Source: a virus. From it: DNA of 64,000 nt. The stretch covers positions 95,469 through 159,468 of IMG/VR virus record IMGVR_UViG_3300045988_126619, one strand, 5' to 3'. Positions 5,719 through 61,970 of the stretch are shown piece by piece (the first letter of the stretch is position 1; each line of letters starts with the position of its first letter). A model generated the notes under the pieces. That model saw nothing but the letters and a program-made list of their open reading frames with translations, did not search any database and was not told where the DNA came from. The position numbers and the translations under genes were made by a program.

Positions 5719-5747
5719 TTGACATAAAATAAACAATAGTATATAAT
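5719..5747 (+). promoter_or_regulatory. sigma-A-type promoter with the conserved element as spacer
   Basis: TTGACA at 5719-5724, 17-nt spacer TAAAATAAACAATAGTA, TATAAT at 5742-5747. Confidence 0.7.
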
Positions 5748-5779
5748 TAATATATAGTTAAAGTTAAGGGGGAATATAA

Positions 5780-6022
5780 ATGAAAAAATATGAATGTGTT
5801 AAAGCATTTTTAGTTCCATTATGTGATGATGATGGTTTCATTATAGAGAATGAAGACAAATATATAGAAGAAGGTTCTATATGGAGTACACCAAAAGATG
5901 AAAATTATAGATTGATAGGAGCAGAAGTTAGACTTGAAAAAAGTGATTGTGAACGGTTAGAATGGTTAGAAATAACTCAAGAAGATTTAGAAGACAAATT
6001 TAGATTGATAGAAGGTGTGTAA
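5780..6022 (+). CDS. hypothetical protein
   Basis: 80 aa with an AAGGGGGA SD. It lies downstream of the promoter at 5719-5747. Confidence 0.45.
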   Translation: MKKYECVKAFLVPLCDDDGFIIENEDKYIEEGSIWSTPKDENYRLIGAEVRLEKSDCERLEWLEITQEDLEDKFRLIEGV

Positions 6023-6023
6023 A

Positions 6024-7457
6024 ATGATAGATAAAGAATTAAATAAAAATATGGAAGTATTAAATATGTTGAGAAAAAGGATTATTATTTTGCCAGAAGT
6101 AAGGCTTATATTAGATAAACTTCACATAAATAATCATAAGGCTTATATTGTGGGAGGTTATGTTAGAGATTCATTGTTAAAGAATCGTATGCCACATGAT
6201 TGTGATATATGCACGTCTGCTACACCACAAGAAATTATGGATATATTTAAAAATTATAAAATAATTCCTACAGGTTTACAACATGGGACAGTAACTATTT
6301 GTATGAAATGGGGCGATTATGAAGTAACTACATTTAGAAAAGATGGGGAATATTTAGATGGTAGACACCCACAAACAATTGATTTTGTTAATGATTTAAA
6401 AGAAGATTTGAGCAGAAGGGATTTTACGATTAATGCGTTAGCTTATAATGAAGAAGAAGGATTAATTGATTATTTTGGAGGAAAGGAAGACCTTGAGAAT
6501 AAAATCATAAGATGTGTAGGAGATGCTGAAAAAAGATTTAAAGAAGATGGATTGAGAATATTAAGAGCATACAGATTCTCTGCACAATTAGGATTTACTA
6601 TAGAATATAATACAAGTAGTATATTAGCATATAAAGGTGTAAAAACAAATATAGATAACGTATCAAGAGAAAGAATAAGAGAAGAATTAAACAAAATTAT
6701 ATTATCTGATAATTCAAGAGAAGTATTGCTTAATATGGTTGATGATGGAATATGTAAAAGTATATTTGGGGATTTTACATTTGAAGATATGATGTTTTTT
6801 AATCAGAATAATCCTTATCACAATAGAACATTACTCAATCATACACTAACTGCCATGACTATTGCTCCACCAATTTTAGAAGTTAGATTGGCATTATTAT
6901 TTCATGATATAGGTAAATTACAAACACAAGCAACTGATGATAAAGGCATTTCTCACTATTATAATCATTCAAAAGTATCAGCAGAATTAGCTTTAAAGTA
7001 TTTAAAAGGATTAAAATATGATAATAAAACAATAGATATGGTTGTTACATTGATTGCAAACCATGATTTTACATTTGATAATTATGATTATATAATTAAG
7101 AAACAATTGAAGAAGCTTCTTAATAAACATGGGGAAGAAATTGTTAAGAATTTAATAATAATTAGAAAATGTGATATATTAGCACAATCAGAAAAGTATT
7201 ATTATGACCGATTAGAAAAAATTTATAAAGTTGAACGTTTACTAAATGATGTTTTAGAAGACCAAGAATGTTTTCAAATTAAAGATTTGGCTATAAACGG
7301 AAATGATTTAATTACAATAGGTTATGAGCAAGGTGTAGAACTTGGGAAAACTTTAAAATATATTGTAGACCTTGTTATAGAAGAACATTTGAATAATGAC
7401 AAAGAAGAATTATTAGAATATGCAAAATTTTTATTAAAAACACTTGACACAAAATAA
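6024..7457 (+). CDS. cca: CCA-adding enzyme (tRNA nucleotidyltransferase) with HD domain
   Basis: Contains the class II nucleotidyltransferase head motifs GGYVRDSLL, DCDI and RRDFTINAL, plus the HD motif LLFHDIGK. I prefer start ATG 6024 (GAAGGTG SD) over the track's GTG 6015. Confidence 0.8.
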   Translation: MIDKELNKNMEVLNMLRKRIIILPEVRLILDKLHINNHKAYIVGGYVRDSLLKNRMPHDCDICTSATPQEIMDIFKNYKIIPTGLQHGTVTICMKWGDYEVTTFRKDGEYLDGRHPQTIDFVNDLKEDLSRRDFTINALAYNEEEGLIDYFGGKEDLENKIIRCVGDAEKRFKEDGLRILRAYRFSAQLGFTIEYNTSSILAYKGVKTNIDNVSRERIREELNKIILSDNSREVLLNMVDDGICKSIFGDFTFEDMMFFNQNNPYHNRTLLNHTLTAMTIAPPILEVRLALLFHDIGKLQTQATDDKGISHYYNHSKVSAELALKYLKGLKYDNKTIDMVVTLIANHDFTFDNYDYIIKKQLKKLLNKHGEEIVKNLIIIRKCDILAQSEKYYYDRLEKIYKVERLLNDVLEDQECFQIKDLAINGNDLITIGYEQGVELGKTLKYIVDLVIEEHLNNDKEELLEYAKFLLKTLDTK

Positions 7458-7472
7458 ATGATAGTATATACT
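7444..7472 (+). promoter_or_regulatory. sigma-A-type promoter with the conserved element as spacer
   Basis: TTGACA at 7444-7449, 17-nt spacer CAAAATAAATGATAGTA, TATACT at 7467-7472. The cca stop codon (7455-7457) lies inside it. Confidence 0.65.
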
Positions 7473-7506
7473 ATTAGTATAGTAAACAAAAGAAAGGATT
7501 GATTGA

Positions 7507-9465: not shown

Positions 9466-9525
9466 TTGACATAAAATAAATGATAAGCAAAAAGACTTGA
9501 CTTTTATGGTTAAGTCTTTTATAAT
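9466..9525 (+). promoter_or_regulatory. composite: TTGACA plus conserved element, then a hairpin-embedded second promoter
   Basis: TTGACATAAAATAAATGAT at 9466-9484 has no -10 at 17 nt. A second promoter has TTGACT at 9497-9502, a 17-nt spacer and TATAAT at 9520-9525. It overlaps the hairpin AAGACTT/AAGTCTT at 9492-9518. Confidence 0.55.
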
Positions 9526-9915: not shown

Positions 9916-9933
9916 AAACAAAATAAATAATAG
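9910..9933 (+). repeat. 24-nt direct repeat, copy 1
   Basis: CTATTTAAACAAAATAAATAATAG, identical to 10225-10248. It contains a variant of the conserved element. Confidence 0.8.
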
Positions 9934-9968: not shown

Positions 9969-10232
9969 ATGAATAAACAAGAATTAATTAAAACATTAAC
10001 AAAAAGATACAAAGAATCCGAGGAATGTATAAATAAAATTTTAGATTATGAAATTAAATATTTAACTGATATAGGATATGGAGAAAATAAAAGAGAAGAA
10101 AGTTTTATATTAAATTATAAAGATATTAAGACAGAAATAACAAGAATACAATATTATGTTGTTGGACATATAAAAGAATGTTGGTATATTAAAACTATAA
10201 GGAAAAATAGTAAATTATATAAATCTATTTAA
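9969..10232 (+). CDS. hypothetical protein
   Basis: 87 aa from ATG 9969, with an AGAGAGG SD. It is preceded by the 24-nt repeat at 9910-9933. Confidence 0.4.
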   Translation: MNKQELIKTLTKRYKESEECINKILDYEIKYLTDIGYGENKREESFILNYKDIKTEITRIQYYVVGHIKECWYIKTIRKNSKLYKSI

Positions 10233-10248
10233 ACAAAATAAATAATAG
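10225..10248 (+). repeat. 24-nt direct repeat, copy 2
   Basis: Identical to 9910-9933. Each copy sits just 5' of an SD. Confidence 0.8.
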
Positions 10249-10693: not shown

Positions 10694-10722
10694 TTGACAC
10701 AAAATAAATGATATGATAAAAT
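10694..10722 (+). promoter_or_regulatory. sigma-A-type promoter with the conserved element as spacer; fires into non-coding DNA
   Basis: TTGACA at 10694-10699, spacer CAAAATAAATGATATGA, TAAAAT at 10717-10722. The next ORF start is more than 500 nt downstream. Confidence 0.6.
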
Positions 10723-11154: not shown

Positions 11155-11169
11155 CATAAAATAAATAAT
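11155..11169 (+). promoter_or_regulatory. conserved element, stand-alone copy
   Basis: CATAAAATAAATAAT, 7 nt upstream of the -35 of promoter 11176-11204. Confidence 0.5.
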
Positions 11170-11204: not shown

Positions 11205-11246
11205 AATAGTATAGTAAATAAGATAAATGATAAGGAGAGAGGTAAC

Positions 11247-12330: not shown

Positions 12331-12345
12331 CATAAAATAAACAAT
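12331..12345 (+). promoter_or_regulatory. conserved element, stand-alone copy
   Basis: CATAAAATAAACAAT, 16 nt after the -10 of promoter 12287-12315. It is immediately followed by the SD AAAGGAGAAG of the RNase H gene. Confidence 0.5.
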
Positions 12346-12359: not shown

Positions 12360-12965
12360 ATGGCAAAATATTATGCGATTAAATCAATTGATGGAGAATT
12401 AGTAAATAAGATTTATACAAGTTGGGATGAATGTAAAGAAAAGGTTAGTGGACATAACTCAATTTATAAATCATTTAAAACACAAGAACAGGCAGAAGAA
12501 TATTTAGGAAACGCACAAGAAGAAATTAAAGAGCATGAAATAAATGATAATAATGTAATATATTATGTTGATGGTTCTTATATGAATGATGTAATAGGTT
12601 GGGGTTGGGTAAAAGTAAAGAATGGTAAACAGATAGGTTCTGATTGTGGAGGTATTAAACCAACACAAGAAAATAGTCGTAATATAACAGGAGAATTACA
12701 AGCAACTATGTTTGCAGTAAAGAACGCAATATTAACTGGTGTGAAAGATATTTACATTGGACATGATTATCAAGGAATAAGTTGTTATGTAAGAAAAGAA
12801 TGGAAACCAAAAAGTAAAGAATCAGTAGCTTATACTAAATGGATGTTAGATGCTATAAAAAAATATAATTTAAATATTCAATTTTTTAAGATAAAAGGGC
12901 ATACTGGTAATGAATGGAATGAAGTAGTAGATAAAGTTGCTAAATTAGGGACAGAGGTGATTTAA
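12360..12965 (+). CDS. RNase H1 with N-terminal hybrid-binding domain
   Basis: 201 aa. The N-terminal YYAIKSIDG...IYTSWDECKEKVSGHNSIYKSFKT matches the RNase H1/caulimovirus hybrid-binding domain. The C-terminal catalytic motifs are YYVDGSY, TGELQA, HDYQG and HTGNEWNEVVDKVAK. Confidence 0.7.
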   Translation: MAKYYAIKSIDGELVNKIYTSWDECKEKVSGHNSIYKSFKTQEQAEEYLGNAQEEIKEHEINDNNVIYYVDGSYMNDVIGWGWVKVKNGKQIGSDCGGIKPTQENSRNITGELQATMFAVKNAILTGVKDIYIGHDYQGISCYVRKEWKPKSKESVAYTKWMLDAIKKYNLNIQFFKIKGHTGNEWNEVVDKVAKLGTEVI

Positions 12966-14384: not shown

Positions 14385-14413
14385 TTGACAAGACATAAAA
14401 TAAATGATATACT
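14385..14413 (+). promoter_or_regulatory. sigma-A-type promoter, element shifted +3
   Basis: TTGACA at 14385-14390, spacer AGACATAAAATAAATGA, TATACT at 14408-14413. Confidence 0.6.
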
Positions 14414-15062: not shown

Positions 15063-15473
15063 ATGAATATATATAGAACAATTAATACACAAGCAGAAAG
15101 ATTATACAGTCAATATAAGGAACATGGTAATATAATTATAGCATATGATTTTGATGATACAGTTTATGGACACAATGGAAATAATTGTGATGATGTAATA
15201 AGAGTTCTTAGATGTTGTAAGCAAGCAAATATAGGTAGATTTATTTGTTATACTGCAAGTAAAGAAGAACGATATCCGTTTATAGAGCAGTATTGTAAAG
15301 ATATGAATTTACCATTGGATAAAATAAATGATGGTTTTGATGATGTTAACCACGTTAACGGTGGAAAGATTTATTATAATATATTTTTAGATGATAAAGC
15401 AGGTTTAGGACAAGCACTTGAAACATTACAGATTGTATTAAATAGGATTATAGATAATACAGATGCTTTTTAA
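15063..15473 (+). CDS. HAD-superfamily phosphatase (possible 5'-nucleotidase)
   Basis: 136 aa. It has the motif I IIIAYDFDDTVYG (DxDxT/V) and a late FLDDK aspartate motif. Confidence 0.45.
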   Translation: MNIYRTINTQAERLYSQYKEHGNIIIAYDFDDTVYGHNGNNCDDVIRVLRCCKQANIGRFICYTASKEERYPFIEQYCKDMNLPLDKINDGFDDVNHVNGGKIYYNIFLDDKAGLGQALETLQIVLNRIIDNTDAF

Positions 15474-15486: not shown

Positions 15487-15861
15487 ATGATAGAGATGGA
15501 AGAAATTAATAATATATCATATGAAACTTGTTTGTGTATATTGCGTAATCCAAACATAAGTAAAGACGTTAAGTTATATCAAGTATTAGATATGGTTGAA
15601 CAGGGGATGGTGTCAGTAAGAACAGCTTTGTTGTTGTTATATAAGTATAAAGTAATAACACAAACTTATGCAGAAATAGAATCAGAGCATAACAAGAATT
15701 ATTTGAAATATTATCAAATGTTAAATAAGACTTCAAGAACGTGTCAGAAATGTGGAGAAACAAAGTCATATACATTAGATATTGAAAGAAGGGATGTACC
15801 ATACAATATATTATGTGAAGAATGTTGGGTTGAGTATATGAACGATAATGATTTAGCATAA
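15487..15861 (+). CDS. hypothetical protein with C-terminal Cys4 motif
   Basis: Starts at ATG 15487, 9 nt after AAGGAG. It contains CQKCGE...CEECW. The stop lies inside the conserved element at 15857-15871. Confidence 0.4.
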   Translation: MIEMEEINNISYETCLCILRNPNISKDVKLYQVLDMVEQGMVSVRTALLLLYKYKVITQTYAEIESEHNKNYLKYYQMLNKTSRTCQKCGETKSYTLDIERRDVPYNILCEECWVEYMNDNDLA

Positions 15862-15871
15862 AATAAATGAT
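15857..15871 (+). promoter_or_regulatory. conserved element, stand-alone copy (no -35)
   Basis: CATAAAATAAATGAT directly followed by AGGAGAGG and the Pnkp start. It contains the upstream stop codon. Confidence 0.5.
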
Positions 15872-18078: not shown

Positions 18079-18107
18079 TTGACATAAAATAAATGATAGT
18101 ATATAAT
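18079..18107 (+). promoter_or_regulatory. sigma-A-type promoter with the conserved element as spacer
   Basis: TTGACA at 18079-18084, spacer TAAAATAAATGATAGTA, TATAAT at 18102-18107. Confidence 0.7.
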
Positions 18108-18963: not shown

Positions 18964-18988
18964 TTAAATAATATACGAAAAAATAATT

Positions 18989-19012: not shown

Positions 19013-19015
19013 ACA

Positions 19016-19030
19016 CATAAAATAAATGAT
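19016..19030 (+). promoter_or_regulatory. conserved element, stand-alone copy (no -35)
   Basis: ACACATAAAATAAATGAT after the hairpin at 18989-19012, followed by AAAAGGAGA. Confidence 0.5.
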
Positions 19031-19478: not shown

Positions 19479-20033
19479 ATGGCAGTAACATTACAAAAAA
19501 GACAGGGAATATCATTATCAAAAGGTTTCTCTAAATTAAGATTTACAGTAAATTGGGAGTATAAAGATGCAGATGTAGACATTGAAGCAATTGTTGTAGA
19601 TGATGGTATTGCTTTAATTGATGAAGACCTAGTTTTTTATGGCAATTTAAGACATCCAAGTAAATCAGTTAGACATTTAGGAGATATAAGAAATGGTGGT
19701 GGTTCTGATGGTGGAACTGAAACTATATCAATAGATTTAACTAAACTACCTAATGATAGAAATGAAATTATTCTAACAGCTTCAATAGATGGAGCAGAAT
19801 CAAACGGAAATAATTTTGGTAATATAGGTAAAGTTAGATGTGAATTAATTGATGATACAAATAGTAAATTATTAGCAACATATGATGTTGATGTTGATTT
19901 AGATATGGAAATTGCAGGAGTGTTATGTAGAATATATAGAAAAGAAGATAATCAATTTGGATATGAAACAGTTGGGCAAGCTTATCCAAGCTTAGAAAGT
20001 ATGGTAACACATTACGGAATAGTGGTGGCATAA
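19479..20033 (+). CDS. terD: TerD-family protein
   Basis: 184 aa. It has the N-terminal MAVTLQKRQGISLSKG and the Ca-binding-type loop GDIRNGGGSDGGTETISIDL typical of TerD/TerE/TerZ. Confidence 0.75.
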   Translation: MAVTLQKRQGISLSKGFSKLRFTVNWEYKDADVDIEAIVVDDGIALIDEDLVFYGNLRHPSKSVRHLGDIRNGGGSDGGTETISIDLTKLPNDRNEIILTASIDGAESNGNNFGNIGKVRCELIDDTNSKLLATYDVDVDLDMEIAGVLCRIYRKEDNQFGYETVGQAYPSLESMVTHYGIVVA

Positions 20034-20043
20034 AATAAACGAC
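20029..20043 (+). promoter_or_regulatory. conserved element, stand-alone copy (variant)
   Basis: CATAAAATAAACGAC. It contains the TerD stop (20031-20033), and its 3' end enters the hairpin at 20042-20072. Confidence 0.45.
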
Positions 20044-20880: not shown

Positions 20881-20909
20881 TTGACATAAAATAAATGATA
20901 TGATATACT
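20881..20909 (+). promoter_or_regulatory. sigma-A-type promoter with the conserved element as spacer
   Basis: TTGACA at 20881-20886, spacer TAAAATAAATGATATGA, TATACT at 20904-20909. Confidence 0.65.
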
Positions 20910-21528: not shown

Positions 21529-21543
21529 CATAAAATAAATGAT
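21529..21543 (+). promoter_or_regulatory. conserved element, stand-alone copy (no -35)
   Basis: CATAAAATAAATGAT, 12 nt upstream of AAAAGGAGAG. Confidence 0.5.
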
Positions 21544-22671: not shown

Positions 22672-22686
22672 CATAAAATAAATGAT
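22672..22686 (+). promoter_or_regulatory. conserved element, stand-alone copy (no -35)
   Basis: CATAAAATAAATGAT. Its 3' ATGATAAGGGAT pairs with AATCCTTTATCAT (hairpin 22681-22711) ahead of the ATPase gene. Confidence 0.5.
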
Positions 22687-25414: not shown

Positions 25415-25443
25415 TTGACATAAAATAAATTATAATATATAAT
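25415..25443 (+). promoter_or_regulatory. sigma-A-type promoter with the conserved element as spacer
   Basis: TTGACA at 25415-25420, spacer TAAAATAAATTATAATA, TATAAT at 25438-25443. Confidence 0.65.
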
Positions 25444-25884: not shown

Positions 25885-25913
25885 TTGACATAAAATAAAT
25901 GATAATGTATAAT
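25885..25913 (+). promoter_or_regulatory. sigma-A-type promoter with the conserved element as spacer
   Basis: TTGACA at 25885-25890, spacer TAAAATAAATGATAATG, TATAAT at 25908-25913. Confidence 0.7.
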
Positions 25914-27807: not shown

Positions 27808-27836
27808 TTGACATAAAATAAATGATAGTATATAAT
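27808..27836 (+). promoter_or_regulatory. sigma-A-type promoter with the conserved element as spacer
   Basis: TTGACA at 27808-27813, spacer TAAAATAAATGATAGTA, TATAAT at 27831-27836. Confidence 0.7.
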
Positions 27837-30435: not shown

Positions 30436-30708
30436 ATGATAAATAAATATAGAAAGAAACCAATAACAATAGAAGCAATACAATTTACTAGAGATAATAT
30501 AGATGAAATATATGATTTTAGCAGAGGAAAAGTATTTAATTTCGTAATTCCAAAAACTTTTGATAGAACAGCTACCTGTTGTATTGAAACATTAGAAGGA
30601 ATAATGAAAGCACAAGAAGGAGATTATATAATAAAAGGGGTAGAAGATGAAATATATTCTTGTGAAAAAAATATTTTTGAAAAAACATATGAAAAGGTAT
30701 TGACATAA
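30436..30708 (+). CDS. small conserved phage protein of unknown function
   Basis: 90 aa. The pattern KKPITIEAIQF...EGDYIIKGVEDEIYSCEKNIFEKTYE resembles a widespread small phage domain. The stop lies inside the promoter at 30700-30728. Confidence 0.45.
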   Translation: MINKYRKKPITIEAIQFTRDNIDEIYDFSRGKVFNFVIPKTFDRTATCCIETLEGIMKAQEGDYIIKGVEDEIYSCEKNIFEKTYEKVLT

Positions 30709-30728
30709 AATAAACGATATGATATACT
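30700..30728 (+). promoter_or_regulatory. sigma-A-type promoter with the conserved element as spacer
   Basis: TTGACA at 30700-30705, spacer TAAAATAAACGATATGA, TATACT at 30723-30728. The upstream stop TAA (30706-30708) lies inside it. Confidence 0.65.
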
Positions 30729-31226: not shown

Positions 31227-31255
31227 TTGACATAAAATAAATAATATGATATAAT
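31227..31255 (+). promoter_or_regulatory. sigma-A-type promoter with the conserved element as spacer
   Basis: TTGACA at 31227-31232, spacer TAAAATAAATAATATGA, TATAAT at 31250-31255. Confidence 0.7.
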
Positions 31256-31491: not shown

Positions 31492-31506
31492 CACAAAATA
31501 AATGAT
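31492..31506 (+). promoter_or_regulatory. conserved element, stand-alone copy (no -35)
   Basis: CACAAAATAAATGAT after the hairpin at 31464-31487, upstream of the SSB-candidate gene. Confidence 0.5.
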
Positions 31507-37745: not shown

Positions 37746-37774
37746 TTGACAACACATAAAATAAATGATAATAT
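37746..37774 (+). promoter_or_regulatory. promoter-like element, conserved element shifted +3
   Basis: TTGACA at 37746-37751, spacer ACACATAAAATAAATGA, TAATAT at 37769-37774. Confidence 0.5.
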
Positions 37775-38195: not shown

Positions 38196-38210
38196 CATAA
38201 AATAAACAAT
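38196..38210 (+). promoter_or_regulatory. conserved element, stand-alone copy (no -35)
   Basis: CATAAAATAAACAAT followed by AAGAGAGGAAG and the radical SAM gene start. Confidence 0.5.
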
Positions 38211-38221: not shown

Positions 38222-39112
38222 ATGAATAATATGAGATTAATAGGAAAATATGTTAATGGTAATTATAAAGTGGCTATCTTTAATGATGGCACAAAAATAA
38301 GACATACAGATGATAATTATTGGAACGCCCAATTTCCAGAAAACATAGATTTAAAAATAACTAATAATTGTGATATGAGGTGTCCATACTGCCACGAAAA
38401 CTCAACTATAGATGGTAAACATGGGGATATTATGAATATGGAGTTTATAAACACCTTGATGCCTTATACAGAGGTCGCAATTGGCGGAGGAAACGCCTTA
38501 GAACATCCATATTTAGTACCATTTTTGCAAAAGTTAAAAGAAAGAAATATATTTGCAAACATAACAGTTAATCAATATCACTTTATGGAGAACTTAATGC
38601 TTATACAGTTATTAGTAGAAAGAGAACTAATAAAAGGTCTAGGAGTATCTTTGATGAATACCACAGAGGACTTTATTTCAGAGATTTCAAAATTTGAAAA
38701 TGCTGTTATACACATAATTAATGGTGTTGAACTAGTTTCAAATTTAAAAAAATTATATGACAAGGATTTAAAAATATTAATCTTAGGATATAAGGAATTT
38801 AGAAGAGGAAAAGATTATTATTCTGAAAAGGTTGAAGCACGAAAGAATATGTTAAAGGAAGAACTTCCTAATTTAATCAATCATTTTCAAGTAGTTAGTT
38901 TTGATAATCTTGCACTAGAGCAATTAGATGTCAAAACTTTATTAGGAGATAAATGGAATGATTTCTATATGGGTGATGATGGTCAATTTACAATGTATAT
39001 AGATGCTGTAACAGGAACATTTGGTAAGAGTTCTACTATGCCAATAGCTGATAGATTACCAATCACAAATAATATAAATGATATGTTTAAAATTGTTAAG
39101 GAGATGAAATAA
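38222..39112 (+). CDS. radical SAM enzyme of unknown specificity
   Basis: 296 aa. It has the CxxxCxxC cluster NNCDMRCPYCHE near the N-terminus and a glycine-rich VAIGGGNALEH (SAM-binding-like) motif. Confidence 0.6.
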   Translation: MNNMRLIGKYVNGNYKVAIFNDGTKIRHTDDNYWNAQFPENIDLKITNNCDMRCPYCHENSTIDGKHGDIMNMEFINTLMPYTEVAIGGGNALEHPYLVPFLQKLKERNIFANITVNQYHFMENLMLIQLLVERELIKGLGVSLMNTTEDFISEISKFENAVIHIINGVELVSNLKKLYDKDLKILILGYKEFRRGKDYYSEKVEARKNMLKEELPNLINHFQVVSFDNLALEQLDVKTLLGDKWNDFYMGDDGQFTMYIDAVTGTFGKSSTMPIADRLPITNNINDMFKIVKEMK

Positions 39113-40784: not shown

Positions 40785-40802
40785 TAAAAATAAAATAAAT
40801 GA

Positions 40803-40831
40803 TTGACAAATGATAAAAGATGTGGTATTAT
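40803..40831 (+). promoter_or_regulatory. sigma-A-type promoter (variant element AATAAAATAAATGAT abuts the -35 at 40789-40803)
   Basis: TTGACA at 40803-40808, 17-nt spacer, TATTAT at 40826-40831. Confidence 0.45.
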
Positions 40832-40865: not shown

Positions 40866-40880
40866 CACAAAATAAATGAT
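40866..40880 (+). promoter_or_regulatory. conserved element, stand-alone copy (no -35)
   Basis: CACAAAATAAATGAT directly followed by AAGGAGGAGAGG and the polymerase start. Confidence 0.5.
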
Positions 40881-44311: not shown

Positions 44312-44326
44312 CACAAAATAAACAAT
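44312..44326 (+). promoter_or_regulatory. conserved element, stand-alone copy (no -35)
   Basis: CACAAAATAAACAAT followed by AAGGAGTG. Confidence 0.5.
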
Positions 44327-45588: not shown

Positions 45589-45617
45589 TTGACATAAAAT
45601 AAACAATAGTGTATAAT
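45589..45617 (+). promoter_or_regulatory. sigma-A-type promoter with the conserved element as spacer
   Basis: TTGACA at 45589-45594, spacer TAAAATAAACAATAGTG, TATAAT at 45612-45617. Confidence 0.7.
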
Positions 45618-45671: not shown

Positions 45672-45917
45672 ATGAAACAACAAAAGATATTAATGGATAA
45701 GAAATCACAAGAAATATTTGAGAAAGGAGATATTACAAAAGAAACAAAATTATTAATGAAATATGGTGAATTAATTTCATCAGATGTTGTCAAAGTTATA
45801 GCACAAGTGGAAGATGTTAATTCAGAACATGCAAGTTATATTGATGTCTACAGATTAAGTGATGATAATAGTGAACTAACTTTTATATGTAGGAGAACAG
45901 AAAATTATTACACATAA
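45672..45917 (+). CDS. hypothetical protein
   Basis: 81 aa from ATG 45672 (GGAGG at 45657-45661). The track start at 45609 lies inside the promoter -10 region. Confidence 0.4.
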   Translation: MKQQKILMDKKSQEIFEKGDITKETKLLMKYGELISSDVVKVIAQVEDVNSEHASYIDVYRLSDDNSELTFICRRTENYYT

Positions 45918-45925
45918 TAAATGAT
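45911..45925 (+). promoter_or_regulatory. conserved element, degenerate copy
   Basis: CACATAATAAATGAT (one A missing), upstream of the sigma-factor SD. Confidence 0.35.
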
Positions 45926-45942: not shown

Positions 45943-46731
45943 ATGAGAAAGGAATTATATTTTGAAAGAGATACACCCATACAACTAACATTAGAGGAAT
46001 GTTTAATTAAATGCAAGAGTTTAACAACAGGCAGATTAATACAAAATTGGTCTAAAGTTTATGAAAGAGATGATTTAATTCAAATGGCAAATATAGGCGT
46101 TATAAAGGCTTATAATTCTTATGATGTAAAACATAAGTCACCATTTATTCAATATGCAGAATATTGTATAAAAAGAGAAATAAACAATGAATATACAAAA
46201 GATAATAGAGATAAGCGTAAGGCAAATATGGAAGCTTGTAGCCTAAACATTTTTTCAGAAGATGATACAGAAGAATGGATTAATAAGTTGGAAGACAGAG
46301 ATACAAACATTGAACAAGAAGTAATAAATAATATAGAAAATTCGAAGCTTAAAAAGGCTATATCCACACTTAAACCATCTTACCAAAAAACGTTACAAAA
46401 ATACTATTTTCAAGGAAAAACTCTTGAACAGGTGGCTAAAGAAGAAGGAGTTTGCCGACAAACAATTGTAAATAGATTAATATTGATTAAACGTGACTTA
46501 AAAGAAAATATAACTGGTATTAAAAAGCCTGCTAAGAAACCTATAAACATAGCTAGAACACTAAATAAAAATTTTAAATATGTAGGGATTAATAAAGAAG
46601 GAAAGGAATATTTCTTTAACAGTATGAAAGACTTTGCAAAAGAACATTCTTTAAGTGAAGCTTGTATGTGGAAAGTTGTTTCAAAAAAAACAAAAACACA
46701 TAAAGGATGGCAATTCGCTAGAATGATATAA
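45943..46731 (+). CDS. sigma-70-family sigma factor with extra C-terminal NUMOD1-like HTH
   Basis: Starts at ATG 45943. Region 2 is DDLIQMANIGVIKAYNSYD..FIQYAEYCIKREI. Region 4 is GKTLEQVAKEEGVCRQTIVNRL. The C-terminal ~60 aa (GKEYFFNSMKDFAKEHSLSEACMWKVVSKKTKTHKGWQF) resemble homing-endonuclease NUMOD1/IENR1 DNA-binding modules. Confidence 0.7.
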   Translation: MRKELYFERDTPIQLTLEECLIKCKSLTTGRLIQNWSKVYERDDLIQMANIGVIKAYNSYDVKHKSPFIQYAEYCIKREINNEYTKDNRDKRKANMEACSLNIFSEDDTEEWINKLEDRDTNIEQEVINNIENSKLKKAISTLKPSYQKTLQKYYFQGKTLEQVAKEEGVCRQTIVNRLILIKRDLKENITGIKKPAKKPINIARTLNKNFKYVGINKEGKEYFFNSMKDFAKEHSLSEACMWKVVSKKTKTHKGWQFARMI

Positions 46732-46743: not shown

Positions 46744-47056
46744 ATGGATGAAAAAGAGTTAATAGAAGCTATAGAAGGACATTTATCAAATAATTATGCT
46801 TGTTATGATACAGAAGAAGAAGTGTTATGTATTGTTAATGAATTAATTCAGACACTAACCAATGAACAGGCTAGAATAACGTTTATTAATAATCTAAAGG
46901 TTGCCAAAGAGGAATATGCAACTGATAAAAACAAATGTCCTAATTGTCGGTAAAGATTTAGTTCAACTTGAACAAACAGATGGATTTGAACATGAATTTG
47001 GAACAGAAATTTATAATTTATGGGGTTGCAAAAATTGCAATTATGTGATAGAATAA
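46744..47056 (+). pseudogene. small zinc-ribbon protein apparently split by a 1-nt frameshift
   Basis: Frame 1 ends ..DKNKCPNCR* at 46953. The +1 frame reads GKDLVQLEQTDGFEHEFGTEIYNLWGCKNCNYVIE* to 47056. CPNC plus CKNC would form one Cys4 ribbon. Alternatively there are two overlapping small ORFs, the second starting at ATG 46916. Confidence 0.35.
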
Positions 47057-47066
47057 AATAAACAAT
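47052..47066 (+). promoter_or_regulatory. conserved element, variant copy
   Basis: AATAAAATAAACAAT, upstream of AAAAGAGAGG. Confidence 0.4.
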
Positions 47067-47655: not shown

Positions 47656-47670
47656 CATAAAATAAATGAT
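47656..47670 (+). promoter_or_regulatory. conserved element, stand-alone copy (no -35)
   Basis: CATAAAATAAATGAT directly followed by TAGGAG and the 3D-domain gene. Confidence 0.5.
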
Positions 47671-48595: not shown

Positions 48596-48624
48596 TTGAC
48601 AAAGCATAAAATAAATGATATAAT
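48596..48624 (+). promoter_or_regulatory. sigma-A-type promoter, element shifted +3
   Basis: TTGACA at 48596-48601, spacer AAGCATAAAATAAATGA, TATAAT at 48619-48624. It lies upstream of nrdD. Confidence 0.65.
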
Positions 48625-48658: not shown

Positions 48659-50863
48659 ATGAATATCAAACTAACGGATAAAATAAATAATAGGAGTGAT
48701 TTTGCGGTGATAAACAAAACAGTAATTAAAAGAGATGGTAGAGAAAAGGAATTTTGTTTCGATAGAATACATGATGCTATCAGAAACGCTTATAAAGAAG
48801 TAAGTGATGAACTTACGTTTAAAGAAGATTATAATTTTCTTAAACCTATGATTGAAGAAAGAATAAATAAAATAAATGATAAGACAATAACAATAGAGGA
48901 AATTCAAGATATAGTTGTAGAAAGCTTATTCAAAGTAAATGTCGATGTGGCAGAATCTTATAAAGCATATAGACGAATGAGAGATATAGAAAGAGAACAT
49001 CCTATTGATACTCAAATATTAGAATTATTAGAAAATAAAAATGAATTTTTAGCAAAAGAAAATTCTAATAAAAGACCAGAATTAGTTTCAACACAAAGGG
49101 ATTTGATGGCAGGTACTTTAAGCAGACATTTAGCAAGAAAAAAATTCCCTAAACATTTATTAACAGCATGGGATTTAGGATTATTTAAACCACATGATGC
49201 AGATTATATGATAAATCCAATTACAAATTGTGAATTAGTACCATTAGATGATATGTTTGATAAAGGAACTGTTATTAATGGAAAAATGATTGAAACTCCA
49301 AAATCATTACAAACTGCTGTTACTTTAGCAACTCAAATAGTAGTTCAAGTAACATCTCAAACTTATGGAGGTTGTTCTATATCTTTATCACATTTAGCAC
49401 CATATGTTAGAAAAAGTAAAAATAAATATAGAGAATTGATTAAACAAGAAGGAATAGAAACAGGTATTGAATATTCAGAACAACAAATATCTAAAATTGC
49501 TGATATAAGATTAAAGAAAGAAATAAAAGATGCTGTCCAAACATTAAACTATCAAATAAACACAATGAGTGGGCAAAATGGTCAAACAGCTTTTCTATCA
49601 GTATTTATTTATCTAAATGAAAACATAGAATATAGAGAAGAATTAGTATTATTAGCAGAAGAGCTATTTAAACAAAGAATAGTGGGAATGAAAGATGAAA
49701 AAGGACATACAACTACTCAAACTTTCCCTAAACTATTATATGTGTTAGATGAAAATAATGTATATCCACAATCTAAATATTTTTGGTTAACTCAATTAGC
49801 TATGAAATGTACAGCTATAAGACAAGCACCAGATTATCAAAGTGCAAAAGTTATGAAAGAAATATATGGAGATGTATTTCCTTGCATGGGATGTCGTAGT
49901 TTCTTGTTCCCTTATAAACCAGATGGAAAGCATTTTAAATGGTATGGTAGAGCAAATGTAGGAGTAACTACTCTTAACTTACCAGACATAGCTTTATCAT
50001 CAAAAGGTGACATGGATACATTTTGGGATATATTTGACGACAGAATGGAAAATTTAATAAAACCTGCTTGTGAATACAGATACACAAAGCTAGAAGGTGT
50101 TCAAGCAAAAGTTGCTCCTTTATTATGGCAACATGGAGTATTTGCTAGATTAAATCCAAATGATTATATCTTAGATGTTATTAAGAAAGAACAATTCTCT
50201 GTAAGTATAGGTTATGCAGGATTATATGAAACAGTATATTATATGACAGGAGAAAGTAACACAACAGAAATAGGAAAGCAATTCCAGTTACAGGTATTAA
50301 AAGCACTAGAAGATAAAGCTAATAAATGGAAAGAAGAAACTGGATTAGGATTCTCTATTTATGGAACACCAATAGAAGAATCTACAGATTGGTTTACTAA
50401 AAAATTAGTTGCTAGATTTGGTATTGTAGAAGGTGTTACTGACCACGGTTATATAACAAATTCATACCATGTAAATCCTCATGAAGATATTGATGCTTTT
50501 TCTAAGTTAGAAATAGAAGGAGATTTCCAAAAGTATTCTAAAGGAGGAAATGTTAGTTATATTGAAACATTAGGATTAGAACATAATATTGATGCTATGT
50601 ATGAAATTATAAAATGTATTTATGATAATAATACTCACGCAGAAATAAATTCTCAATCTGATTGTTATTGCTACAAATGTGGTTATAAAGGTCAATTAGA
50701 AAATGAAAATACTGGTGATTATAATTGGATATGTCCTAATTGTGGAAATAAAGACCAAGAGGAACTAAATGTTGTTATAAGAACTTGCGGATATCTTAGT
50801 TCTAAGGGAATATATACAACAGGAAGAATGAAAGACATCCTTAGTCGTAAAGTTCATATATAA
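48659..50863 (+). CDS. nrdD: anaerobic ribonucleoside-triphosphate reductase
   Basis: 734 aa. The N-terminal ATP-cone is VIKRDGREKEFCFDRIHDAI. The C-terminal zinc ribbon is CYKCGY...CPNCG. The glycyl-radical motif is RTCGYLS. Confidence 0.85.
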   Translation: MNIKLTDKINNRSDFAVINKTVIKRDGREKEFCFDRIHDAIRNAYKEVSDELTFKEDYNFLKPMIEERINKINDKTITIEEIQDIVVESLFKVNVDVAESYKAYRRMRDIEREHPIDTQILELLENKNEFLAKENSNKRPELVSTQRDLMAGTLSRHLARKKFPKHLLTAWDLGLFKPHDADYMINPITNCELVPLDDMFDKGTVINGKMIETPKSLQTAVTLATQIVVQVTSQTYGGCSISLSHLAPYVRKSKNKYRELIKQEGIETGIEYSEQQISKIADIRLKKEIKDAVQTLNYQINTMSGQNGQTAFLSVFIYLNENIEYREELVLLAEELFKQRIVGMKDEKGHTTTQTFPKLLYVLDENNVYPQSKYFWLTQLAMKCTAIRQAPDYQSAKVMKEIYGDVFPCMGCRSFLFPYKPDGKHFKWYGRANVGVTTLNLPDIALSSKGDMDTFWDIFDDRMENLIKPACEYRYTKLEGVQAKVAPLLWQHGVFARLNPNDYILDVIKKEQFSVSIGYAGLYETVYYMTGESNTTEIGKQFQLQVLKALEDKANKWKEETGLGFSIYGTPIEESTDWFTKKLVARFGIVEGVTDHGYITNSYHVNPHEDIDAFSKLEIEGDFQKYSKGGNVSYIETLGLEHNIDAMYEIIKCIYDNNTHAEINSQSDCYCYKCGYKGQLENENTGDYNWICPNCGNKDQEELNVVIRTCGYLSSKGIYTTGRMKDILSRKVHI

Positions 50864-51429: not shown

Positions 51430-51458
51430 TTGACATAACATAAAATAAATGATAATAT
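51430..51458 (+). promoter_or_regulatory. sigma-A-type promoter, element shifted +3
   Basis: TTGACA at 51430-51435, spacer TAACATAAAATAAATGA, TAATAT at 51453-51458. Confidence 0.55.
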
Positions 51459-51510: not shown

Positions 51511-51891
51511 ATGATAGAACATAAAGATAAAATTTTACAATTACAAGATGGAACATTAATTTGTGGATTTTGTATGAAACCTATAACAATAGAAAAGAAA
51601 CATGAATGGGATGAATATGAAAAATATGAATGGACTGAATACTCTTGCAGTTGTGATGAATGGAAAGCTTATGACCAATTAAATCAAGATATAATGAAAT
51701 TAGATTGGGAATATTATAATAAGCTGAAACGCATCGTGGCAGATTATAGACAAGAAAGAGCAGAATTAGTTAAGAAAGCAAATGAATGTAGTCCTAAACA
51801 ATGTGTTATGACAGACTTTAATTCATATATTTTAGATGTTATGCCACCATCAACTAATCCACATACAAAAAATGAATGGGTTGTTAAATAA
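51511..51891 (+). CDS. hypothetical cysteine-containing protein
   Basis: 126 aa with an AGGAGAGG SD. It contains CGFC...CSC. Confidence 0.4.
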   Translation: MIEHKDKILQLQDGTLICGFCMKPITIEKKHEWDEYEKYEWTEYSCSCDEWKAYDQLNQDIMKLDWEYYNKLKRIVADYRQERAELVKKANECSPKQCVMTDFNSYILDVMPPSTNPHTKNEWVVK

Positions 51892-51901
51892 AATAAATGA
51901 T
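51887..51901 (+). promoter_or_regulatory. conserved element, variant copy
   Basis: AATAAAATAAATGAT. It contains the upstream stop (51889-51891) and is followed by AGGAGAAAAAG. Confidence 0.4.
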
Positions 51902-53488: not shown

Positions 53489-53517
53489 TTGACATAGCAT
53501 AAAATAAATGATATACT
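53489..53517 (+). promoter_or_regulatory. sigma-A-type promoter, element shifted +3
   Basis: TTGACA at 53489-53494, spacer TAGCATAAAATAAATGA, TATACT at 53512-53517. Confidence 0.6.
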
Positions 53518-54007: not shown

Positions 54008-54211
54008 ATGATTAATTTGGAAAAAGGAACGAAATCTAACACTATTGATACCATAATAAAAGAACTAGAGGATATAAATAAATTAACTTCTAAAATATAT
54101 AGTGATAGTTATAGTAGTTATAACATGAGTTTAATCAGACATAACACAGGTAAAATACTTGGGAAGACAGATACTTTGATTAATATTTTAAAAAGTATTG
54201 ACATAAAATAA
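54008..54211 (+). CDS. hypothetical small protein
   Basis: 67 aa with an AAGGAGGA SD. The stop lies inside the promoter at 54198-54226. Confidence 0.4.
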   Translation: MINLEKGTKSNTIDTIIKELEDINKLTSKIYSDSYSSYNMSLIRHNTGKILGKTDTLINILKSIDIK

Positions 54212-54226
54212 ACAATAAGATATAAT
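54198..54226 (+). promoter_or_regulatory. sigma-A-type promoter with the conserved element as spacer
   Basis: TTGACA at 54198-54203, spacer TAAAATAAACAATAAGA, TATAAT at 54221-54226. Confidence 0.7.
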
Positions 54227-56080: not shown

Positions 56081-56095
56081 CATAAAATAAATGAT
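56081..56095 (+). promoter_or_regulatory. conserved element, stand-alone copy (no -35)
   Basis: CATAAAATAAATGAT after an imperfect hairpin (56053-56077), followed by AGAGGTG. Confidence 0.5.
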
Positions 56096-57896: not shown

Positions 57897-57925
57897 TTGA
57901 CATAAAATAAATGATATGATATAAT
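57897..57925 (+). promoter_or_regulatory. sigma-A-type promoter with the conserved element as spacer
   Basis: TTGACA at 57897-57902, spacer TAAAATAAATGATATGA, TATAAT at 57920-57925. Confidence 0.7.
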
Positions 57926-58123: not shown

Positions 58124-58138
58124 CATAAAATAAACAAT
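58124..58138 (+). promoter_or_regulatory. conserved element overlapping a start codon
   Basis: CATAAAATAAACAAT. The last two bases begin the ThyX-like ATG at 58137. Confidence 0.45.
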
Positions 58139-59879: not shown

Positions 59880-60477
59880 TTATTTTACCTTCCTTCTTCT
59901 TGTTATTGTTGTTCTTGTTTTTCTTGGTTTCTTTACTTTTTTCTTTTCATCTAATGTCTTTTCTCTTTTAGCTGTTTTTGTTTGTTCTTTAACTCTTGTC
60001 TTTTTCATGAGTTCTACATCGTACTCACAATCATAAAATTCAATTCTTGCTCCGCTTAACACCTTTTTTATATTCTATTGATAAAGTAAGTTCTTTAATA
60101 ACATCACAGCTATCATCAACAAGGACACCTGTTTCTTCTGCTGTTAATCCATCTAATATAAATTTTGGAACTATATTATCAATATCTGTTCTTGCTCTTG
60201 TAGGTTTATAAACTGTATACTTACATTTACATTCACTTATTCCTAAATTTTCTAATCCATAATGTTCTACAACAAATTTAGTAAAATCTTTATAGTTTTG
60301 CTTTAATGTATTCATTTTCTTTCTTTGTAAAATTATCCATTTGTTTAAAGATGGATTAGCAGGTGTATCTATTGGATTATTTTTTGCTCTTGGATGTAGT
60401 CTAAAATATCTTTTAGTCCATTCATACATTAATTCTTCTGTAAATTCTATTACCACTACATCTTTCTTGTTTCTCAT
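59880..60477 (-). pseudogene. rusA: RusA-family Holliday-junction resolvase interrupted by a 1-nt frameshift
   Basis: ATG 60477 (AAAGGAG SD) gives ..RARTDIDNIVPKFILDGLTAEETGVLVDDSCDVIKELTLSIEYKK (the RusA D-x-D-N...DD pattern), then stops at 60040. The +1 frame continues VLSGARIEFYD... to 59880. The frames join if the A6 run (plus-strand T6 at 60064-60069) is read as A5. Confidence 0.6.
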
Positions 60478-60658
60478 ATTTAATAATCTCCTTTGTATCA
60501 AAACAATTTCGTTAAATAAGCATTTAGCGAAATTATTTAAATGTTTTATTGTAATTGTATTTTTTTATTTATATAATATCAATTCTGACAAGATTTAAGA
60601 TTTGAACATCAAAATAATCTAACACTTAGTCATTTATAATTATTTCAAATTCTATATT

Positions 60659-61747
60659 CTATCTTGTAATCCAATCCCAACAACCATTATCATTGACATA
60701 ATATTTTTTATCAACAACGGTGTTTGTTGCCATAGAACCTTTTGGCATACCAACTTGTGGATATAAGTAATAATAATTACCTTTCCATAACAGCCATCCA
60801 GTTGTCATGTAACAGTTTTCATCTAAAAAATACCATTTACCATCAGTATCTTTAAACCATTCATTACATAAAGCTATTGAATATTCGTTGAACTTAAACC
60901 AATCTTGTCCTATTTGTAACCATTCATTACAAGCATAAGTACCATTATCTTTTTTGTATTTCCATTTCATTCCCGCAGGTGTTTGATATTTTTCCCACCC
61001 ACTTTTTGGTTTTTCTATTTTTGTGTCCACGATTGCCCATGCTTCTTTAATAAGAGGAGAATTTATGTCTATGTAGTAAAGACCGTGATTTCCAGTATTT
61101 CCCCAACTATTATCATTTGTTAATAAGTCTTGTTTGTATTCAAAACAAACCATTGCATGATTTCCTTTATAACTTCCTTTACCAAATGTCGGAATATACC
61201 CACCATTTGTTTTTGCTTCGTAAAAGTTGTCGTAAACTTTATATATTACCATGATTGGCATATCATATTTAGATATATATTCTTTTATTTCAGAAGCTTC
61301 TAATCTAATGTAAGAAAGGGATTTTTCATTATTTGCTTTATTAATCAAATCATTTATGTTATTTTCTTCTAATGTTTTTAAAATAGAAGGATATTCAATA
61401 TCACAGTCAAAATCCGATTTTAAACAATCACCAATTTCACATAAATTTGCACAAGCTTCACGTGGAATTAATCCAGTTTTTTGATGTTGATTATTTTTTC
61501 TATAACCATATAAAAAGCCGATTGAATACGATTTTTTTGTAAAATAACGTTTCATTTTAGTTAAACAATGTGCAACACATGAATTAACCAATTGTTTTGT
61601 ATTATCTGGTTCATAATCAGAAACCGTATAATTTAGTGGCACTTGATAATCCCCATTTAATGAAGCAATATCTGATATCCTATAATCTCTTGGGTCACTA
61701 GGACTATCTACAGACCCAAGAAATTCATAATTTATTTTATTTTCCAT
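60659..61747 (-). CDS. endolysin: papain-like cysteine peptidase domain plus cell-wall-binding repeats
   Basis: 362 aa. The N-terminal domain has DPRDYR, a nucleophile-like NSCVAHC and GNHAMVCFEY (His). The C-terminal ~120 aa are GW/WY/YF-rich repeats of the choline/cell-wall-binding type (GWEKY..WKYKKDNGTY, WFKDTDGKWYFLDENCYMTTGWLLWKGNYYYL). Confidence 0.55.
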   Translation of the reverse strand: MENKINYEFLGSVDSPSDPRDYRISDIASLNGDYQVPLNYTVSDYEPDNTKQLVNSCVAHCLTKMKRYFTKKSYSIGFLYGYRKNNQHQKTGLIPREACANLCEIGDCLKSDFDCDIEYPSILKTLEENNINDLINKANNEKSLSYIRLEASEIKEYISKYDMPIMVIYKVYDNFYEAKTNGGYIPTFGKGSYKGNHAMVCFEYKQDLLTNDNSWGNTGNHGLYYIDINSPLIKEAWAIVDTKIEKPKSGWEKYQTPAGMKWKYKKDNGTYACNEWLQIGQDWFKFNEYSIALCNEWFKDTDGKWYFLDENCYMTTGWLLWKGNYYYLYPQVGMPKGSMATNTVVDKKYYVNDNGCWDWITR

Positions 61748-61751
61748 AGTA

Positions 61752-61943
61752 TTACACCTCTTTTAATTCATTTACAATACAATCTGTATATCCATCTATT
61801 GTAAGAATAGAATCCACAGCCGACTTCCATTTTGCATATATGTTTACATCAATAAAATATGCTCTATATAAATCTTGTGCTTCCTTTAATGAATAATTAT
61901 CTCTCTTTTCTTCAATTCTTTGTGCTATAAATGTTGCCATCAT
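61752..61943 (-). CDS. hypothetical small protein
   Basis: 63 aa. It is preceded on the minus strand by the conserved element (61956-61970) and an AAAGGATG SD. Confidence 0.4.
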   Translation of the reverse strand: MMATFIAQRIEEKRDNYSLKEAQDLYRAYFIDVNIYAKWKSAVDSILTIDGYTDCIVNELKEV

Positions 61944-61955
61944 CGAATCATCCTT

Positions 61956-61970
61956 TCTGTTTATTTTATG
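61956..61970 (-). promoter_or_regulatory. conserved element on the minus strand
   Basis: The minus strand reads CATAAAATAAACAGA. It comes directly after the stop of 61971-62279 and before the AAAGGATG SD of 61752-61943. It is the only good minus-strand copy seen. Confidence 0.45.

Follow-up and report, generated by a model that had tools for sequence, protein, structure and literature searches.

Organisation of the window

The window analysed here is a stretch of 64,000 nucleotides (nt) from the IMG/VR virus record IMGVR_UViG_3300045988_126619 (positions 95,469 to 159,468), and the subject of this work is a 15-nt element, CATAAAATAAAYRAT, hereafter called the box, that recurs along it. The source is an uncultured phage whose contig, of ~159 kb, has been found repeatedly in human gut metagenomes. 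The window has a G+C content of 26-27%, and its + strand arm (1-58.7 kb) holds ~95 genes at a coding density of 90%. These genes encode a CCA-adding enzyme, a Pnkp/RNA ligase fusion, a P-type cation ATPase and an NAD salvage cluster, together with the replication proteins (a Sak4-like annealing protein, DnaB, primase, exonuclease, a DnaE-type polymerase and DNA ligase), a sigma factor, NrdD/NrdG and dUTPase. From 58.7 kb on, lysis and tail genes lie on the - strand. The early/replication arm runs at least 13 kb further upstream of the window, with box-bearing promoters, and totals at least 72 kb. Our scans covered 84 kb of the genome, including 13 kb of the late arm.

No close relative was found among deposited phages. 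The DnaE polymerase showed 37-42% identity to polymerases of large Clostridium and Bacillus phages, and in Clostridia genomes relatives of the phage were found only at 38-39%. The host is probably a member of the Clostridia.

The box is a strand-specific word at gene boundaries

The box occurred in 29 exact copies, all on the + strand, where shuffled sequences gave an expectation of 0.02. With at most one mismatch there were 43 copies on the + strand and none on the - strand, and with at most two mismatches 60 matches were found against 10.3 expected. A 17-nt position weight matrix (PWM) returned 49 sites on the + strand and one on the - strand at 10 bits or more; its score was sharply bimodal, and the conserved core extended to A-CATAAAATAAAYRAT-A. 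The initial annotation, made by eye, had counted more than 40 copies, always co-oriented with the next gene, and both statements stood up to the PWM scan. Scans of the kind it had proposed as a check also showed that the box is not equally frequent in coding DNA or on both strands. The exact copies against their expectation and the 49:1 strand bias rule out a compositional artefact.

Coding DNA makes up 90% of the arm, yet just one exact copy (35053) falls wholly within it, and the other 28 are found at the boundaries of genes. By PWM, 41 of the 95 genes have a box within 95 nt upstream. The box is non-palindromic, with a core of 15-17 nt, and inverted copies are absent. Eight upstream genes have their stop codon (TAA) inside a box, six at sites listed earlier and two more at 45911 and 47052. 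The ATG within the box generates false N-terminal extensions, as had been noticed, at 18093, 19026, 32886, 40876 and 56091, and box positions therefore correct several gene starts.

The first 5.7 kb of the window are free of boxes, as first described, but this is only a local gap, and box-bearing promoters resume upstream of the window (L051, 19-170; L058, 604, 1450 and 3033). In the 13 kb of late arm examined, only two-mismatch matches were found, mostly in coding DNA. The minus-strand copy reported at 61956 is indeed co-oriented with a minus-strand gene, but it agrees with the box at no more than 13 of 15 positions, and its score is under 10 bits.

Copies inside coding DNA (15318, 35053 and 48866, also 12534) are all in the sole stop-free frame and encode (H/D/N)KIN(D/N); three to four good coding copies were observed against ~0.1-0.2 expected. 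A related locus, L045 (see below), has, at the gene end where 35053 lies, a copy of its own that is not orthologous. The box is a real regulatory word, very far from random in its occurrence, conserved, and confined to a single phage lineage.

All strong sigma-A promoters of the arm carry or adjoin a box

All 23 non-coding strong sigma-A promoters on the + strand carry or adjoin a box. In 14 of them (class A) the box lies in the spacer in register +4, beginning 4 nt into TTGACA, and in five (class A′) it lies in register +9, the last T of the box being the first base of the -10. In the other four the box is a neighbour of the promoter, placed against or ahead of the -35, in the leader at about +5 to +22, or both. 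At promoter 9497 it is 12 nt upstream of the -35. Promoters of classes A and A′ have both hexamers, with 12/12 or 11/12 matches at a spacing of 16-18 nt; class B copies lack the one hexamer as well as the other.

The fusion of the box to a perfect -35, as first described, was found again in 15 copies, in which TTGA joined to the box gives TTGACA-N17-TATAAT/TATACT/TAAAAT. A class ascribed to a 3-nt insertion after TTGACA also exists, but it has five members rather than four (14394, 37755, 48605, 51439 and 53498), and in them the box has moved 5 nt relative to the -35 (+9 instead of +4). The special placements singled out before, downstream of a promoter (12331), upstream of a promoter (11155) and in coding DNA (35053), were borne out.

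The second architecture that had been proposed comprises 22 stand-alone copies (class B). These are usually flush with a Shine-Dalgarno sequence (SD), in minimal intergenic gaps and with sharp boundaries from -1 to +15; in 15 of the 22 the SD begins 0-3 nt after the box. No -35 was detected upstream of the 22 copies, the information from -45 to -2 being at most 0.4 bit (99.9% random bound, 0.56). A downstream -10 is ruled out, the space being taken by the SD, and an extended -10 (TGn) is not present in the right register. One class B copy stands at a gene start that is probably mis-called: the annotated ATG of NrdD (48659) has its SD 15 nt away, and the GTG at 48707 has a well-spaced SD, the class B box in front and, at its start, the typical ATP-cone motif VIKRDG.

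Hairpins adjoin many boxes. Four strong ones end 1-2 nt before a class B box (19016, 31492, 32876 and 56081) and lack T-tracts, in line with the initial description; several others begin exactly at +15 (for example at 20029 and 22672), and in all eight copies have a hairpin in one of these two positions. Terminator-like hairpins start at or just after the box at 14409-14445, 45608-45645 and 51459-51495, and their 5′ arm extends over the sigma-A -10 or the bases that directly follow it. The promoter's own transcripts would thus begin in or past this arm and escape termination, and polymerases reading through from upstream would be halted. In a relative (L056) the hairpin at 14409 is kept, with one compensatory pair. 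The leader hairpin of the ATPase gene (box 22672) covaries across three genomes and pairs with the 3′ ATGAT of the box, and the box must therefore be transcribed there. Class A boxes directly behind the strong terminators 25372-25399 and 34483-34508, which are exact and conserved, should by their position rarely be transcribed. Overall, the hairpins adjoining the box are not conserved between copies or orthologues.

The box is conserved independently of its surroundings

Box-bearing relatives were represented by three loci. L045 and L056 belong to one contig, from a relative with an 85%-identical polymerase and 72-84% nucleotide identity, and L057 belongs to a second relative. Strand counts (+ : -) were 20:0 in L056, 17:0 in L045 and 9:0 in L057. 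The box at 15857 and its orthologue at L056 3390 are identical at 15/15 positions with diverged flanks, and between 19016 and L056 6346 the box is kept and the hairpin lost. At 31492 the box is kept in three genomes, in one of which the hairpin spacing has changed and in another of which the hairpin has been replaced by a sigma-A promoter. In total, stand-alone copies are kept at at least eight orthologous junctions while the flanks diverge. Two orthologous promoters (20885 and L056 7639; 25889 and L056 14340) have the box in register +4 in the window and +9 in L056. Since orthologous promoters switch register and keep the box, the box is selected independently of the promoter hexamers, yet must overlap them.

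Between the window and the 85% relative, box identity was 87% over 15 positions and ~95% at core positions 4-10, compared with 82% in other alignable non-coding DNA (Fisher p = 0.014). Third codon positions reached 65%, and the box matches second codon positions in its degree of conservation. Single-nucleotide polymorphisms at the strain level changed 0 of 45 element positions, with too little variation between strains to be informative.

The box was absent from the loci of ~40 more distant relatives (38-66% polymerase identity). In one of these, L047, a promoter spacer is conserved but diverged from the box. Two others, L036 and L004 (57% polymerase identity), have AT-rich boxes of their own on the + strand only, TAAATTAACAAAA and AACTAAATTAAAAA, with 7 copies against 0.66 expected and 6 against 0.38 expected, respectively (both significant). 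Copies noted at L036 3050, 4066, 14116, 14957 and 19953 and at L004 8, 11786 and 16203 lie 4-6 nt upstream of TTGACA promoters and, in L036, also alone, flush with SDs. The dual architecture may thus recur with other sequences in this phage family.

The substitution pattern points to duplex DNA

Position tolerance was computed over 71 non-coding copies from four genomes. A1, A3, A8, A10 and A13 were invariant, and A6, T7 and T14 varied in ~1%. The tolerant positions were C0 (28%), T2 (18%), A5 (10%), A9 (11%), Y11 (25%) and R12 (38%). Positions 2-7 read TAAAAT, with the variants CATAAT, TAAGAT and TAAATT; if this hexamer is numbered as a -10, its A3 (-11) and T7 (-7) vary in 0-1%. Position +15 is A in 38 of 43 copies. 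Among the box-bearing phages the consensus shifts from C to A at position 0 and from A to T at position 9. The coding near-copy at 12534 has lost A3 and is, by this pattern, probably non-functional.

At positions 11-12, 84 of 99 copies have a pyrimidine followed by a purine, where 24% would be expected, and the two positions are strongly coupled (TG 52, CA 18, TA 11, CG 3; Fisher p = 3e-8). Orthologues also swap TG and CA, as between 47656 (TG) and its L045 counterpart (CA). Read on the opposite strand, the base-pair step TG becomes CA, so that the equivalence of the two is expected of indirect readout of duplex DNA and not of single-stranded RNA. The pattern points to recognition of the box as duplex DNA, and the box most likely acts at the DNA level.

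A candidate system of operators and stoperator-type sites

A literature search for the box sequence found nothing relevant. By analogy, the box closely parallels a kind of system known from an unrelated phage group. Repressors of Cluster A mycobacteriophages bind asymmetric 13-14-bp sites that lack dyad symmetry, number 20-30 per genome and point in the direction of transcription; some are in promoters, most are promoter-independent stoperators that block elongation, and the consensus is lineage-specific (PMC6550527). The system described here resembles that of L5, Bxb1 and Trixie in having short asymmetric sites, dozens per genome, oriented with transcription, some in early promoters and others in short intergenic gaps, with a consensus that varies between related lineages. 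We tentatively put first the reading that the boxes are operators and promoter-independent, transcription-oriented stoperator-type sites for a phage DNA-binding regulator, even though its probability falls somewhat short of an even chance.

What was observed directly is where the sites lie, how strictly they are oriented, that every promoter has one, that they are conserved and that they bear a duplex-DNA signature. An operator for a phage regulator was one of three readings first offered, and it now leads, with the reservation just stated, through the 23/23 promoters, the register switching, the duplex step and the stoperator precedent. From these we infer protein binding, repression and a gene for the regulator. 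A phage-encoded, sequence-specific regulator would bind the box as duplex DNA. Where the box lies in or against a sigma-A promoter it would serve as an operator, the bound protein blocking host RNA polymerase; a stand-alone box in a short gap would serve as a stoperator, the bound protein blocking polymerases that read through from upstream. In this way one protein could silence or shut off the whole arm of at least 72 kb, either while the phage persists as a prophage or plasmid or when early expression gives way to late.

Several observations become easier to place on the operator reading. The genome has so many consensus host promoters that a control site would be needed at each of them. The orientation and intergenic placement of the stand-alone copies are no longer an objection to operators, because stoperators have been documented in Cluster A (PMC6550527). 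Copies followed immediately by a terminator (14394, 51439, 9470, 45593 and 20029, and 13810 in L056) are no problem for a stoperator. Two integrase-family recombinases and a Phd-like antitoxin are encoded within the arm and a distant relative of the phage is an integrated prophage, which makes a repressed state plausible in a phage that may be temperate and whose ~159-kb contigs recur without host flanks.

The differences from Cluster A are also clear. The phage studied here is large and AT-rich, has a DnaE polymerase and belongs to an unrelated lineage with a probable Clostridia host. About half of its sites are in promoters, rather than a few, and they occur at 23/23 promoters, nested in the 17-nt spacer in two fixed registers. 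Site density is about twofold higher, the sites are seen in the early arm only (13 kb of late arm examined), and the repressor is a putative one. Another comparison is phage P1, in whose plasmid prophage a single repressor, C1, controls lytic promoters through many dispersed operators without palindromic symmetry. The C1 operators are associated with promoters, whereas 22 copies here have none.

Other results weigh against the operator and stoperator proposal. No repressor or helix-turn-helix match was found among ~40 proteins scanned (PHROGs, Pfam), most small proteins being unannotated, and no divergent switch region was found next to an integrase; the recombinases lie inside the arm under box-bearing promoters, and the phage is only putatively temperate. 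The 13 kb of late arm have no good copies, whereas Cluster A stoperators occur in both arms. The -10-like substitution pattern (A3 and T7 invariant, internal hexamer positions tolerant) would be a coincidence, and the eight box-flanking hairpins are more readily understood if the signal gives rise to an RNA 5′ end. The box of promoter 9497, moreover, is too far upstream to occlude the core promoter.

A nested promoter as the closest rival

In a second reading, possible but on balance unlikely, the box is a promoter without need of a -35. TAAAAT would be its -10, the conserved stretch that follows a discriminator, and the start would fall at about +14 to +16 on the conserved A. Host polymerase reprogrammed by a phage factor, or a mother-cell-type (sigma-E/K-like) sigma, would read it, and a second phase of transcription of the arm would start from the stand-alone copies and from those that overlap the early sigma-A promoters. 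The absence of -35 information from the stand-alone copies and their sharp boundaries agree with this, as do the near-invariant A3 and T7 beside a tolerant T2 and tolerant internal positions. The A at +15 has the expected start geometry, and an SD or hairpin often begins exactly there. A hairpin or SD at a transcript 5′ end fits the 5′-proximal stabilisers of Firmicutes. The exact coding copy at 35053, 64 nt upstream of dnaB, could likewise be a start site.

Known single-element promoters provide a precedent. T4 late promoters, TATAAATA, consist of one element and are independent of a -35. In phiEco32, single-element promoters (gp36, tAATGTAtA) start transcription 6-8 bp downstream (PMC8948821); there, too, one short AT-rich element without a -35 precedes many co-oriented genes. 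The window differs from these systems in its conservation over 15-17 nt up to a putative start, in the half of its copies embedded in sigma-A promoters and in a sigma factor that has region 4. A resemblance to sporulation-type promoters also exists: CATAAAAT agrees at 7/8 positions with CATATAAT, the sigma-E/K -10 box of C. difficile (PMC3789822). Such promoters combine a CATAnnnT-type -10 with a -35 of ATA or AC; no -35 signal was detected here, and C0 varies in 28% of copies.

The initial annotation had offered, as one of its readings, a -10-only promoter served by the phage sigma factor encoded at 45943-46731. The -10-like features just described favour its first half, but the link to this sigma is weakened: the protein aligns to sigma-H-type proteins through region 4, whereas phiEco32 gp36 and similar single-element readers lack region 4 (PMC8948821), which makes it a poor candidate; some six copies (14394, 51439, 9470, 45593, 20029 and L056 13810) would fire into a hairpin and T-tract; and the late arm is without the box. 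No other sigma factor was seen and no cofactor was recognised. NCBIfam subfamily scores of the sigma were all far below the cut-offs. Its C-terminal extension of ~60 residues has weak NUMOD-like similarity to I-HmuI-type homing endonucleases (Pfam E = 6e-4; PHROG HNH endonuclease 1e-9) and may be an extra DNA-binding module.

The nested promoter also leaves unexplained why the box lies in the spacer, and not in tandem, in 19 of the 23 sigma-A promoters; it does not predict the TG/CA coupling, and the conserved 15-17 nt exceed known sigma-type -10-only elements. We consider its full form rather improbable, namely a promoter within a promoter, in which a -35-independent signal is nested in every early promoter spacer and also stands alone before internal genes, and a switch of polymerase specificity silences sigma-A and starts a second phase at the same 29 bp. 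A nested promoter, if that is what the box is, would point to a so far unknown means by which Clostridia phages redirect host RNA polymerase.

Readings at the RNA level and as a passive remnant

The third of the initial readings, an RNA-level signal in polycistronic transcripts, is improbable. The box would be a site of cleavage or 5′-end maturation, or of a translational regulator, just 5′ of the SD, with hairpins protecting the ends. Strict strand bias, the 15 of 22 stand-alone copies flush with an SD, the T-tract-less hairpins ending 1-2 nt before the box, the hairpins from +15 and the transcribed box of the ATPase leader would all suit such a signal. About half of the copies, however, lie in promoter spacers upstream of their own start, some behind strong terminators, and are conserved nonetheless. 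The TG/CA equivalence is meaningless in single-stranded RNA, the orthologue of 19016 has the box but no longer the hairpin, and good copies occur in NrdD and other coding regions beyond expectation. No complementary RNA was found in 84 kb (0 antisense matches, that is, no reverse-complement copy at up to one mismatch), and neither an Rfam family nor a tRNA matched.

Candidate mechanisms of other kinds were rejected as well. Pairing with the 3′ end of 16S rRNA and a reverse-strand site of the IHF type were rejected by eye, the CAAT allele destroying ATCA. MazF-type cleavage at ACA cannot account for 15-nt conservation. As for processing of the RNase III or RegB type, the box is an unstructured AU-rich 15-mer, and RNase III needs a hairpin and RegB GGAG.

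The least probable reading gives the box no function of its own, as the spacer of a multiply duplicated promoter module with the stand-alone copies as decayed remnants or recombination scars: class A modules do share ~50 nt of similarity and cross-match in BLAST, copy 10232 retains a degenerate -35 and gene content near some copies differs among relatives, but the stand-alone copies are sharply bounded and kept at orthologous junctions whose flanks diverge, promoters change register around the box, PWM scores show no decay continuum, and the core is far better conserved than third codon positions. The model for this reading would be the PeSL of T4-type phages, repeated modules of an early promoter and a stem-loop between small genes in a plastic early region; here, in contrast, the conserved unit is the 15-mer, the hairpins are non-homologous and dispensable, and the stand-alone copies are under purifying selection. 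We thus rank operators and stoperator-type sites first, followed by the nested promoter, the RNA signal and the remnant, and leave what remains to a hybrid or to some other mechanism.

Coordinates and neighbouring genes

Positions of the boxes and of the sigma factor gene are given in Table 1.

Table 1 Copies of the box, variants and the sigma factor gene in the window
Position	Strand	Feature
5723..5737	+	Class A, register +4, spacer of sigma-A promoter 5719-5747
7448..7462	+	Class A, CAC variant; stop of gene 6024-7457 inside
9470..9484	+	Fused to TTGACA, no -10 at +19; then hairpin and second promoter 9497-9525
9917..9931	+	Class B-like variant AACAAAATAAATAAT; hairpin before
10232..10246	+	Class B variant, flush with SD
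10698..10712	+	Class A, -10 = TAAAAT
11155..11169	+	6 nt upstream of -35 of promoter 11176-11204
11217..11231	+	Variant AATAAGATAAATGAT in 5′ untranslated region (UTR) of promoter 11176, flush with SD
12331..12345	+	In 5′ UTR of promoter 12287-12315, flush with SD of RNase H gene
12534..12548	+	Coding near-copy CATGAAATAAATGAT; invariant A3 lost
14394..14408	+	Class A′ (+9); hairpin 14409-14437 and T7 at +15
15318..15332	+	Coding copy GATAAAATAAATGAT; in frame, DKIND
15857..15871	+	Class B, before Pnkp/RNA ligase gene; 15/15 kept in L056 3390
18083..18097	+	Class A
19016..19030	+	Class B; hairpin without T-tract ends 2 nt upstream
20029..20043	+	Overlaps stop of gene 19479-20033; hairpin from +15
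20885..20899	+	Class A; orthologue L056 7639 in register +9
21529..21543	+	Class B
22672..22686	+	Class B, before P-type ATPase gene; then covarying hairpin
25419..25433	+	Class A, directly behind terminator 25372-25399
25889..25903	+	Class A; orthologue L056 14340 in register +9
27812..27826	+	Class A, NadV operon
30704..30718	+	Class A; stop of upstream gene inside
31231..31245	+	Class A
31492..31506	+	Class B; hairpin upstream; kept in L056 20354 and L057 9913
32876..32890	+	Class B; hairpin without T-tract ends 2 nt upstream
33619..33633	+	Degenerate copy in probable group I intron; probably outside the system
34526..34540	+	Class A, directly behind terminator 34483-34508; kept in L045 1900
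35053..35067	+	Exact copy in coding DNA of gene 34576-35112, 64 nt upstream of dnaB start
37755..37769	+	Class A′ (+9), fifth member
38196..38210	+	Class B; kept in L045 5691
39068..39082	+	Variant AATAATATAAATGAT, 3′ end of gene 38222-39112
40789..40803	+	Abuts -35 of promoter 40803-40831
40866..40880	+	Class B, after leader hairpin and T5, flush with SD of DnaE polymerase gene; kept in L045 9973
44312..44326	+	Class B; kept in L045 13403
45593..45607	+	Class A; hairpin 45608-45645 from +15
45911..45925	+	Variant CACATAATAAATGAT, flush with SD of sigma gene; kept in L045 14992; upstream stop inside
45943..46731	+	Sigma-70-family factor, regions 2 and 4, C-terminal NUMOD-like extension
47052..47066	+	Class B; 15/15 kept in L045 16129; upstream stop inside
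47656..47670	+	Class B; orthologue AACAAAATAAACAAC (TG to CA)
48605..48619	+	Class A′
48677..48691	+	Class B, before probable true NrdD start GTG 48707
48866..48880	+	Coding copy AATAAAATAAATGAT inside NrdD
51439..51453	+	Class A′; then terminator-like hairpin 51459-51487 and T-tract
51887..51901	+	Class B; stop of upstream gene inside
53498..53512	+	Class A′
54202..54216	+	Class A; stop of upstream gene inside
56081..56095	+	Class B; hairpin without T-tract ends 1 nt upstream
57901..57915	+	Class A
58124..58138	+	Between SD and ATG of last + strand gene
61956..61970	-	Weak 13/15 match, co-oriented with minus-strand late gene, flush with SD; doubtful member

Several neighbouring genes merit mention. 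The arm holds a tRNA/RNA repair set of a CCA-adding enzyme (6024-7457), a metallophosphoesterase (8790-9449) and a Pnkp-RNA ligase fusion (15887-18070), and a complete NAD+ salvage set of phosphoribosyl pyrophosphate (PRPP) synthase, NadV and NAD synthetase (26959-30420); both sets look like counter-defence functions. The P-type (Ca2+-type) cation ATPase is full-length (22747-25365), and its module region also takes in 18301-22665. According to their annotation, the orthologous neighbours of the ATPase in L056 and L057 are PspA/IM30-like and, in two cases, TerD-domain proteins, and in L056 the ATPase gene is broken into two open reading frames. This ATPase/PspA/TerD-type neighbourhood is a membrane or stress module, unusual in a phage early region.

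The gene for the Sak4-like annealing protein is split by a 525-nt non-coding gap (33345-33868). Its N-terminal (32934-33344) and C-terminal (33869-34477) halves match phrog_124 residues 32-140 and 168-324, respectively. The gap contains a sub-threshold group I intron match at 33657-33785 (RF00028, 26.8 bits, E = 1.4e-4), which includes the GAUAUAGUC core, and the 42 nt of its 5′ edge (33343-33384) are 95-97% identical to sequence from the terminase regions of Twort-like phages of Staphylococcus. By these similarities the gap is probably a group I intron common to distant Firmicutes phages. IS605-type OrfB/TnpB genes were seen in a strain variant of the window phage (L052, 18890-20239), as an insertion absent from the window itself, and in a 64% relative (L047, 14163-15374 and 17122-18219).

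Implications

The 49 sites delimit the early regulon of an abundant, unstudied human-gut phage. If the boxes are indeed operators and stoperator-type sites, orientation-dependent genome-wide silencing by one repressor would not be peculiar to actinobacteriophages and would have arisen independently in a large Firmicutes gut phage. Its form would also be new: every consensus promoter would have an operator set into its spacer, in one of two registers. The box and its repressor would then make a compact, portable operator/repressor pair for AT-rich anaerobes, and the box would serve as a sequence marker with which to predict immunity groups and early regulons in uncultured gut phages.

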